This document shows, piece by piece, positions 19,161-32,700 of a stretch of 64,000 nt of DNA (its first letter is position 1; every line of letters begins with the position of its first letter). The notes under the pieces were generated by a model that was not told the DNA's origin, did no database searches, and saw nothing but the letters and a program-made list of their open reading frames with translations. The DNA lies in the NCBI GenBank assembly GCA_965112155.1, contig OZ218100.1. One strand, written 5' to 3'. A program made the position numbers and the translations under genes. Source of the DNA: Podarcis liolepis (taxonomy: Eukaryota).

Positions 19161-29300
<10,140 letters not shown>

Positions 29301-29605
29301 GCTCGCGCCGTCCCTTCCTTCACCTCCCTGACCCTCTTGTCCTGGCAGCCAAATAAAATAATTATTTTGCGAAGCGCCAAAGGAGTTCACCTTAGGGCCC
29401 GTGCCTGTGCTAAGATGCTTATTATTACAATATAGATAGACAAGCAGTGCGTCCCTCTTTCTGCCCCTTTCCCGTTTGTTTCCTAAATCTCTGCCGTTCA
29501 TAGTACGTTATATGTATCTAGCAGGACCTTCCACCTTCTAAGTGAGTGTCGTCATCACTACTACCCGGAAGCTAGGACGACGCGTGCGTGGTCTGGCCGA
29601 GGGAG
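29301..29605. promoter_or_regulatory. Bidirectional promoter between head-to-head NDUFAF7 and CEBPZ
   Basis: Only 305 bp between the two ATGs; CpG-rich flanks; ETS core CCGGAAG at 29565-29571. Confidence 0.85.
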
Positions 29606-29722
29606 ATGGCGACGTTGTCGGAGTTGGAGCTCGAGAAGTCTGACGAGAGAGATGGCGAGGGAGAGGTTGATGATGGAAGCGGCTTCACTCTGGAGGAGGT
29701 GCTGCGCCTCGGAGGCACCAAA
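29606..29722 (+). CDS. CEBPZ: CEBPZ exon 1 CDS
   Basis: gagATGG; [39 protein letters not shown]; gtaaga donor. Confidence 0.93.
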
Positions 29723-32700
29723 GTAAGAAAGAGGCCCTGAGGCGGCCTGGAAAGGGGTCCAGGGAGGTCCCTACGCATCTCTTTCCTTCCACGTGGTGGG
29801 AAAGGGGTGAGAGCCTTGGGTCAGCCTGGCTCTTTTCCCTCGGAAAGGATGGGCTTTAACAGGCGGAGTTTCTCCAAAAGTCGAAACAAAATAAAAAAAT
29901 TCCTTCCAGTAGCACCTTAGAGACCAACTAAGTTTGTTATTGGTATGATCTTTCGTGTGCATGCATCTTCAGATACATGAGATAAGAATCCAATGTCTCT
30001 ATTCAGACCAGGCCTCTCCATGGTTTTAAGTCTGGTAATAAGTTGCAATTCAGCAACTTCTCTTTCCAGTCTATTTCTGAATTTTTTTTTAATAAGACAG
30101 CAAAAGAATTTCAGAAATAGACTGGAAAGAGAAGTTGCTGAATTGCAACTTATTACCAAACTTGAAACCATGGAGAGACCTGGTCTGAATAGAGACATTT
30201 GATTCTTATCTCATTATACATGATAAAGCTATTTTTAGCTGTCCCACCCCTTGCTTTTTCCTGTAAGACCAATTGCAGTCGTTAACAGTTGTCAACAGGT
30301 TTACCACACCTATCAGCCAATCACCTATTCCCACCACCCTTCTGAGTAATAACCCTCCCTACTGTGTCACTATATATAAGGGACTGGTGACTTCTGTTTC
30401 AGTGTATCTGAAGAAGTGTGCATTCACATGAAAGCTCATACCAATAACAAACTTAGCTGGTCTCTAAGGTGCTACTGTAAGGAATTTATTTTGTTTTGAC
30501 TATGGCAGACCAACACGGCTACCTACCTGTAACTTTCTCCAAAAGGGCATTCGCCCTGGAAGGAGACGTCATCTGTCTAATGTTGGCTTCTCACATGTTG
30601 CCGTCTTTTCAAACTGGTGGAAATAAATGGCAGATCTGCTGCATGTGTAGCTTGAGGGGTTACACACATAGTATGTGGGCAGCGAACAATTTTTGTTTTC
30701 ATTTTTAGACATCTCCTCCCTCACTGGGTTATATACAAAGAGCCTTCTGGCCCCGTGTGGACCAACAGATAATATTGTAACAGAAATGTGCGGCCACAAA
30801 TTCTTACGTCACGACTAACCTGTTGTCCTTAATTTTTTTATGTGCAGCCAGTGATTAAGACAGTTTTTTCTGATTTTTGTACATGGTTTTTAGTAAAACA
30901 AAAAATAAAAATCCAGCACTATGAGAGCAGGTGGGACAATTCTTAATACTAGATAGTCCTTACATTGGTGGATATTTCAGAGGTGTGCAAGTAAATTAGA
31001 AGCAGTAATGGGCAATGTTGTCTGCGTATGTTATAAACCTATTTGCAATATGGATGTCTTATAATGCATGCACTGTCAAATGATGTTATCCATGAACACG
31101 CTGCTGAGACAACTTGTTACTTTGTTTTATGCAGCAAGATTATATCATGCTCGCTGCTTTGGATGAGACCGAAGAAATTGTAGATGGTGGAAAAAAAGGT
31201 GCCATTGATGATCTGAAGGATGGTGAATTGGAGGCATTTATAAAATCACTGGGTGTGAGCAGCTATTCAAAAAAATTCCTGGTTGCAGCAGATGAAGAAG
31301 AAGAGGGAGAAGCAGATGAAGGAGAACAAAAACTACGAAAAAAAGAGAAAGTCAACCAAAAGGAAGTAAACAAAACTACAGTAGCAAAAAAAGAAAACCA
31401 AGTGAAAGGAAGTAAAGAAAAAATAGAGTCAAGTAATGCCCAAGATAATAAGAAACAGTCAGTTCCCAATAGTGCTTTGTTGCATGGAACAAAAAAAGAC
31501 AAGGAAGTGGACACTTTTCAGTTTCATGAGCGGCAGATACTACTTATAAAACCAGGGGGCAAATGGTATGATCTGGAGTATACAAATGAATTTTCTACTG
31601 AACCCCAAAATCAGTCCCTTGTATCCAAGTATAAGGCTTTGGCTCAAAAGCTTTACCAACAAGAGGCAGACCTCTGCAAGAGTAAGGCAAATCTATGGAA
31701 AGGATCATCATCAGCTTGGATGAAAACTGTAGTATCCTCAGGGACTCTTGCTGACAGAATGGCTGCCATGACCCTTCTTATCCAAGATGCTGCTGTGCAC
31801 TCACTTCAGTTTATAGAGACCCTGGTGAATCTGATAAAAAAGAAAGGTAGTAGAAGGCAGAGTTTAATGGCCTTGGATACTTTCAAAGAGCTTCTCATGA
31901 CACATCTTCTACCAGACAATCGTAAGCTGTACACTTTCTCCCAACATCCTTTTGGCTCTCTGGAGCAGCTCTCAAGTGGCAACAGAGACTCGAGGGACAG
32001 GCGCCTGATCTTGTGGTATTTTGAGCATCACCTGAAGCACTGGGTGGCTGAATTTGTGCAGGTGTTAGAATCACTGAGTCATGATCCCCTGGTGGCAACA
32101 AAAACCCGTGCTCTTGTTGTTGCGCATGAACTTCTCTGCAACAAGGTAGAGGAAGAGAAAGCTTTTCTTGTGCAGTTAGTAAACAAACTGGGAGATCCTC
32201 TAAACAAAATAGCCACCAAAGCCTCTTATCTGCTAGAGACTCTGCTTCATAAGCATCCCAACATGAAAGGAGTGGTGTGTAATGAAGTGGAGAGGCTTCT
32301 CTATCGATCAAACATTAGCCCCAAAGCACAATACTATGCCATCTGCTTTTTGAACCAGATTGTTCTTAGTCACGAGGAGAGTGAGCTGGCTAACAAACTC
32401 ATTACACTCTACTTTTGCTTTTTTCGGTCTTGTATCAAGAAAAAAGACGTTGAGTCCAAAATGCTTAGTGCTCTCTTGACAGGGGTGAACAGAGCTTACC
32501 CTTATGCTCAGACTAGTGATGAAAAAATAAAGGAGCAGATGAATACTTTGTTTAAGGTTTTGCACCTTGCGAACTTCAGCACTGGCATCCAAGCCTTGAT
32601 GTTGCTGTTTCAAGTAATGGATTCTAATCAGACTATATCTGACCGATATTACACAGCCCTATACAAGTAAGCATCTCATACATTTTGATGTTTCTATTAA

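Follow-up and report, generated by a model that had tools for sequence, protein, structure and literature searches.

Why should a putative self-cleaving motif lie beneath its own antisense copy in the first intron of a host gene? The insertion considered here carries a Penelope-like hammerhead motif together with an upstream inverted arm, and the preliminary description read this arrangement as a start-site-dependent switch, in which host pre-mRNA would be protected by the antisense arm and RNA started at an internal promoter would self-cleave. We favour a different answer, to which we give a probability of roughly 87%: the masking would be a neutral by-product of the routine way in which this family inserts, not an evolved switch.

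We take the host gene to be CEBPZ: its second exon (start 31135) has a match (E 3.7e-36) in MAK21/NOC1, the yeast homologue of CEBPZ, which agrees with that name. The insertion described at the outset, 653 bp (29881–30533) flanked by a 12-bp target-site duplication (TSD), was recovered in full, beginning 159 nt 3′ of coding exon 1 where about 160 nt had been stated. Twelve nucleotides is also the longest repeat between the insert flanks, and the insert is the sole copy of its element family within the window (the whole 64-kb stretch of DNA analysed). Feature coordinates are collected in Table 1. Upstream of exon 1, a GC-rich stretch at ~29100–29300 may contain the start of a divergent gene, presumably NDUFAF7 judging by synteny.

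Table 1 Features of the host gene and of the fold-back insert in its first intron (window positions)
Feature	Position	Strand	Remarks
Host coding exon 1 (CEBPZ/NOC1/MAK21 homologue)	29606..29722	+	GT donor at 29723
Intron 1 of host gene	29723–31134	+	GT and AG read in sequence
TSD, left copy, 12 bp	29869..29880	+	TTTCTCCAAAAG
Left arm piece 1 ("mask")	29881..29976	-	Inverted copy of 30404–30499 (RNA start to inner 3′ end of family)
Second hammerhead copy, damaged	29943..29976	-	4 nt missing at stem II; stem III no longer palindromic
Left arm piece 2	29977..30101	-	Inverted ORF 3′ end (30102–30214 plus 12 nt of upstream family sequence)
Right arm, last Penelope-like ORF codons (endonuclease C-terminus)	30102..30223	+	Premature stop
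Predicted internal promoter	30315..30380	+	CCAAT box, C-rich box, TATA box
CCAAT box	30317–30321	+	Within AGCCAATCA at 30315–30323
C-rich box	30352–30366	+	5 private changes
TATA box	30373–30380	+	TATATAAG
Minimal type I hammerhead motif	30404..30441	+	Inferred RNA start G30404; predicted cut after 30437
One-sided 34-nt "tail", right arm only	30500..30533	+	Compare PMC8557442, PMC11167929
TSD, right copy, 12 bp	30534..30545	+	TTTCTCCAAAAG
Host exon 2, open frame	31135..32670	+	Frame end given; exon 3′ end approximate

The insert consists of two head-to-head arms, visible as inverted pairs at 29977–30089/30102–30214 (95% identity) and 29871–29977/30403–30509 (85% with gaps). As first described, the left half is an inverted copy that lacks the promoter segment; its full extent is 29881–30101, what had been taken for a 12-nt loop being family sequence in reverse. 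In the right arm lie the final ~40 codons of the family ORF, in frame identical to the C-terminus of a GIY-YIG-bearing copy (L026), in agreement with the GIY-YIG-type C-terminus claimed for this half. The longer copies L017 (E 6e-4) and L026 (E 1.1e-3) match the Pfam GIY-YIG model weakly, neither reaching the curated cut-off, and in translations of L016, L017 and L026 a CX4CxxC motif precedes the GIY-YIG-like domain. A CX2–5CxxC motif upstream of GIY-YIG is ascribed to Neptune and Nematis (Craig et al. 2021, PMC8557442), and an inverted 5′-truncated copy with a one-sided tail is described as the typical structure (PMC8557442, PMC3846280). The CEBPZ insert combines such a copy with a one-sided tail of 34 nt, within the 30–40 bp of that structure, and a 12-bp TSD; with the C-terminal GIY-YIG and upstream cysteine motif of the longer copies and a hammerhead in the pseudo-LTR, these sequence features support assigning the element to the EN+ Penelope-like elements (PLEs) of Neptune/Nematis type, in keeping with the Penelope-like identity and inverted pseudo-LTR originally proposed. 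It differs from the Neptune/Nematis elements of PMC8557442 in that only the terminal 432 bp, without RT, are present at the CEBPZ locus, and in a left arm that skips the promoter via a locus-specific junction. Pen2a_Av of Adineta vaga (PMC3846280) is alike in its inverted pLTR, shorter than the direct one, its tail at one end, its short TSD and its TATA plus initiator-like motif. In the green anole, the Poseidon element (Frangieh et al. 2024, PMC11167929) likewise has two internal RT start sites that bound the tail, a hammerhead just upstream and uncut RNA as template; it belongs to another clade, the CEBPZ family having an extra Zn-finger-like motif.

The family is abundant. Exact 20-letter patterns of the hammerhead 5′ half gave 10,478 + 2009 + 1112 = 13,599 genome matches, that is, more than 13,000 copies of the hammerhead end, and a genome DNA search for the family returned 3286 candidates, of which 40 were scored. 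Two samples of loci were characterized: sample 1 comprised 87 loci, all on contig C1, covering 98 of the first 100 listed among 2609 motif matches (3 duplicate loci dropped), and sample 2 was built with a motif that lies downstream of the ribozyme, the first 100 of its 4450 listed matches yielding 68 loci (2 duplicates dropped), with 4 loci common to both samples. Under a strict rule (a matched arm with a divergent partner within 600 nt), a divergent inverted partner was found at 53 of 87 and 32 of 68 loci, respectively, rising to 54 of 87 and 40 of 68 under a loose rule; convergent-only loci were absent among the 87 + 68 sampled. Solo and fold-back copies are thus both numerous, and 45 of 54 fold-backs repeat the end pattern of the CEBPZ insert, with the end of one arm close to query position 397 and that of the other close to 432.

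The CCAAT and TATA boxes reported on the CEBPZ sense strand were found there and are intact in this copy (Table 1). Across the family, arm 5′ ends peak at the base corresponding to G30404, 31 nt after the TATA box (21 of 161 exactly, 40 of 161 within query 302–305; 25 of 124 within query 301–305 in sample 2). Where the match stops at this peak, the preceding base was G in 14 of 19 sampled cases (p 3e-4), and genome-wide an extra G precedes the peak in 2009 of 3121 non-T cases. Other reverse transcriptases are known to copy the 5′ cap as a G. The extra G suggests that capped sense RNA is the template of the inverted arms, with biased untemplated addition as a possible alternative source of the same base. 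The proposed start at an internal promoter is accordingly supported at the family level, by both the 5′ ends and the extra G, but it falls at G30404, not at 30395. A literature search of titles and abstract openings found no publication on cap-derived G in Penelope-like elements, a result that is not proof of absence.

From these genomic fossils we infer how the insert was made. The endonuclease would make two nicks, one per strand and 12 bp from each other, and each would prime cDNA at one of two internal family start sites; a start near 30499 for one cDNA and near 30533 for the other would leave the tail on one side only, and two internal RT starts bounding the tail, with uncut RNA as template, are reported for Poseidon (PMC11167929). 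The left cDNA would run to the 5′ end of the promoter-started RNA (G30404) and then jump to the ORF end, after which the two cDNAs would be joined head to head. A cDNA that ran off the 5′ end of its RNA and then jumped to a new template would leave the left arm without a promoter, and this is the best reading of the left junction because this junction lies at the family 5′-end peak and is unique in the genome (1 match at ≤2 mismatches). Promoter-skipping junctions similar to it, with other landing points, occur at L037, L135, L136 and L148. Loss of the left-arm promoter through a later microhomology deletion is possible, but such a deletion would have struck the G30404 base by chance. Self-priming on an antisense template, proposed and favoured for Pen2a_Av in PMC3846280, would be a further route to an inverted arm; here, in contrast, the 5′ pile-up and the extra G point to capped sense templates. 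The insert is a 5′-truncated head-to-head double copy of a Penelope-like end, likely dead on arrival and decaying neutrally.

Two other accounts of the left-arm gap were rejected. A promoter-less subfamily is ruled out by the single genome match of the junction. A spliced intron does not fit either: the skipped part has no GT start, though 30397–30402 resembles an acceptor, and family arms begin at G30404 with an extra G, with no starts at T30403 that follow a common first exon.

Is the motif that would be masked an active ribozyme? The hammerhead call rests on pattern and literature. CUGANGA, GAAA and UH boxes are all present, with an extra base after A9, a palindromic 15.2–16.2 and a short stem I, as in the definition of minimal type I hammerheads in PMC4209133, and the scissile C is at 30437. 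Metazoan PLE hammerheads (Cervera and De la Pena 2014, PMC4209133) are alike in the core boxes, the extra base before stem II, the 4-bp stem I and the palindromic stem III without loop; the CEBPZ copy differs from them in that its G10.1–C11.1 pair is G.U and its second copy is damaged. The motif first placed at 30404–30441 therefore keeps its boxes and its cut site at 30437, but carries two changes that had gone unmentioned, at 30424 and 30429, and the suggested comparison with Rfam models did not back it: with a limit of E 10, a scan of 29000–31500 gave 38 matches, all to microRNA-like hairpins and short of the gathering score, and no hammerhead family. All 14 of 14 core ribozyme bases are intact in this copy (chance 0.53), as they are in 61 of 79 family arms. 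The T at 30429, a CpG-type change at a position where family arms have C in 100 of 130 and T in 29 of 130, is what reduces the G10.1–C11.1 pair, termed highly conserved in PMC4209133, to G.U; no usable publication on the effect of G.U at 10.1–11.1 was found in the literature search. The base at 30424 differs from 113 of 120 family arms, and lies in loop II, where it breaks only a 14-nt stem II palindrome.

Compared with intact copies, the CEBPZ motif is predicted to be weaker in stem II (−2.2 vs −4.1 kcal/mol), in the dimeric active fold (−5.5 vs −11.1 kcal/mol) and in the best two-copy fold (−17.0 vs −30.6 kcal/mol). In published work, a single minimal hammerhead gave no cleavage in vitro and dimers little (PMC4209133), and the anole hammerhead required protein, with no RNA ends at the cut site (PMC11167929). 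Within sample 2, 98 of 124 family arms run across the cut site and 4 start within query 335–339, counts that show the survival of uncut RNA and not an absence of cutting, since cut RNAs may simply escape copying. A lone, weakened minimal hammerhead at CEBPZ would, even unmasked, cut little or not at all.

As a separate observation on the family, stem II of its hammerhead is a perfect 14-nt palindrome (window 30416–30429), and among abutting fold-backs (loci L032–L191) 24 of 45 and 12 of 21 combine an arm that extends to the RNA start with an arm that ends at query 313–337. The palindrome may serve the pairing of two RNAs or two cDNAs during insertion.

The predicted folds do differ by start site. 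In models of the pre-mRNA a mean of 0.84 of the hammerhead bases were paired with the left arm, in support of the proposal that the upstream antisense arm pairs with the ribozyme, and the mask duplex is predicted at −127.6 kcal/mol. Stems I and II had a probability of 0.0 in pre-mRNA models against 0.3–0.4 in RNA from 30404, so that the anticipated contrast between long and short RNA appears, but with stems that are only partly formed in the free state. A start-dependent conformational contrast is thus predicted; any consequence is doubtful, and the host gene is likely unaffected by the mask. The same models contain a hairpin at 29977–30214 (113 bp, 95% paired, a 49-bp perfect run, −177 kcal/mol), which is a candidate substrate for A-to-I editing.

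The masked geometry is, moreover, the family default. In sample 1, 31 of the 64 loci with a complete hammerhead have it covered by an antisense arm upstream, and in sample 2, 22 of the 45; a promoter-less antisense arm lies upstream of a promoter-bearing copy in 10 of 54 cases (promoter-bearing arms drawn from 178 loci, 29 picked for full-length similarity). Whichever strand is read, a head-to-head pair presents its antisense arm first and its sense arm second, so that the mask needs neither selection nor a set orientation; and since any fold-back contains a masked sense arm whichever strand is transcribed, comparing the orientation of sense copies is confounded. For 60 solo or tandem loci, a flank-skew proxy of host direction had a mean of −0.009 (SE 0.008; 25 of 60 positive). 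The suggestion that the switch explains tolerance of the insertion finds no support, as about half of the sampled loci carry the mask and the mask is strand-symmetric. Close opposite-strand hammerhead pairs were already noted in PMC4209133, and a search of titles and abstract openings found no publication on antisense masking of Penelope hammerheads, which is not proof of absence.

Nor does the locus bear marks of constraint. In a comparison with 29 close copies, the 432 nt of the right arm show 19 changes, which fall on the ribozyme (2 of 38) and elsewhere (17 of 394) alike (p 0.68; low power, one allele) and on paired and unpaired parts alike (7 of 209 vs 11 of 189; p 0.33; low power, one allele). 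The two arms share 0 derived changes, two end rows of that comparison being alignment-edge artefacts, and the left arm lacks 4 nt opposite stem II. A 15-nt stretch upstream of the TATA box holds a cluster of five changes (p 3e-4, uncorrected for ~29 windows). Neither purifying selection nor compensatory pairing was detected at the CEBPZ copy (one allele, low power), and by these counts the ribozyme has decayed at a neutral rate. A contig of organism F crosses the right junction by 76 nt, with flanks differing at 49 of 1449 letters, which places the insert before at least one species split; among the matches listed it alone passed the bridging rule of 31 letters, at the right junction, and contigs of organisms A, B and D reach 12–27 letters into the element at both junctions (suggestive only). 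From these alignments the insert is thus older than at least one species split, an age in line with its 4% decay and one that calls for no function.

Counted against the neutral reading are the survival, across at least one species split, of an insert that lies only 159 nt from the first donor, the intact core, TATA and CCAAT boxes, and the fold that differs by start site. A wider claim would run as follows: head-to-head Penelope ends would silence themselves on both strands and, if free copies cut or mis-splice, fold-backs would be retained in introns genome-wide and the CEBPZ copy, with its capped start at G30404, would be a start-site-dependent ribozyme switch. We regard this as improbable. 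A passive filter, to which we give slightly less credence still, would share the mechanical origin of the neutral reading, with introns tolerating fold-backs better than solo sense copies: the hairpin would hide the ribozyme or other harmful signals, and the CEBPZ locus would be one survivor without regulatory role. One such signal could be a possible cryptic exon of 74 nt at 30403–30476, with an acceptor-like TTTCAG at 30397–30402 and a GTAAG donor at 30477 that is owed to a change carried by this copy alone; the exon would be frame-shifting, and sits beneath the predicted hairpin. The strength of the predicted mask duplex and the abundance of both solo and fold-back copies agree with such a filter, but long hairpins may have costs of their own, and minimal hammerheads are near-inactive alone (PMC4209133, PMC11167929). 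Related hammerhead retrozymes are reported in a preprint (10.64898/2026.07.22.740005) to be depleted from introns in two Xenopus species, which favours the filter and, by analogy, makes genic selection on hammerhead motifs possible. A selected switch at CEBPZ itself is very improbable: it could draw on the family-level start site, the intact motifs, the predicted fold difference and an insertion common to at least one other species, but ribozyme and arms show no constraint, G10.1–C11.1 is lost and the stem II palindrome broken, the C-rich promoter box has five changes, family RNAs started at G30404 were mostly copied uncut, and the geometry is that of the family at large.

On the neutral by-product reading, the CEBPZ locus itself matters little, as one of more than 13,000 copies of the hammerhead end. 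The family fossils are more useful: arms that stop at one base 31 nt past the TATA box, frequently with an extra G, and that mostly cross the cut site suggest that inverted pseudo-LTRs are copied from capped sense RNA that has not been cut, which bears on how PLE ends form and on the role of the hammerhead. Should fold-backs prove enriched in introns, insertion geometry alone would be able to neutralise a ribozyme.

Two minor observations concern other sequences at these positions. On the host sense strand, the left arm contains AATAAA at 29890–29895, ~170 nt into intron 1. Elsewhere in the genome, another element with inverted-repeat ends occupies the same TA at the hammerhead start at L077:1295–1529 and L087:1293–1501, which rules out an intron as the source of these same-position gaps, and L178:1396–1995 has a gap at the same position.
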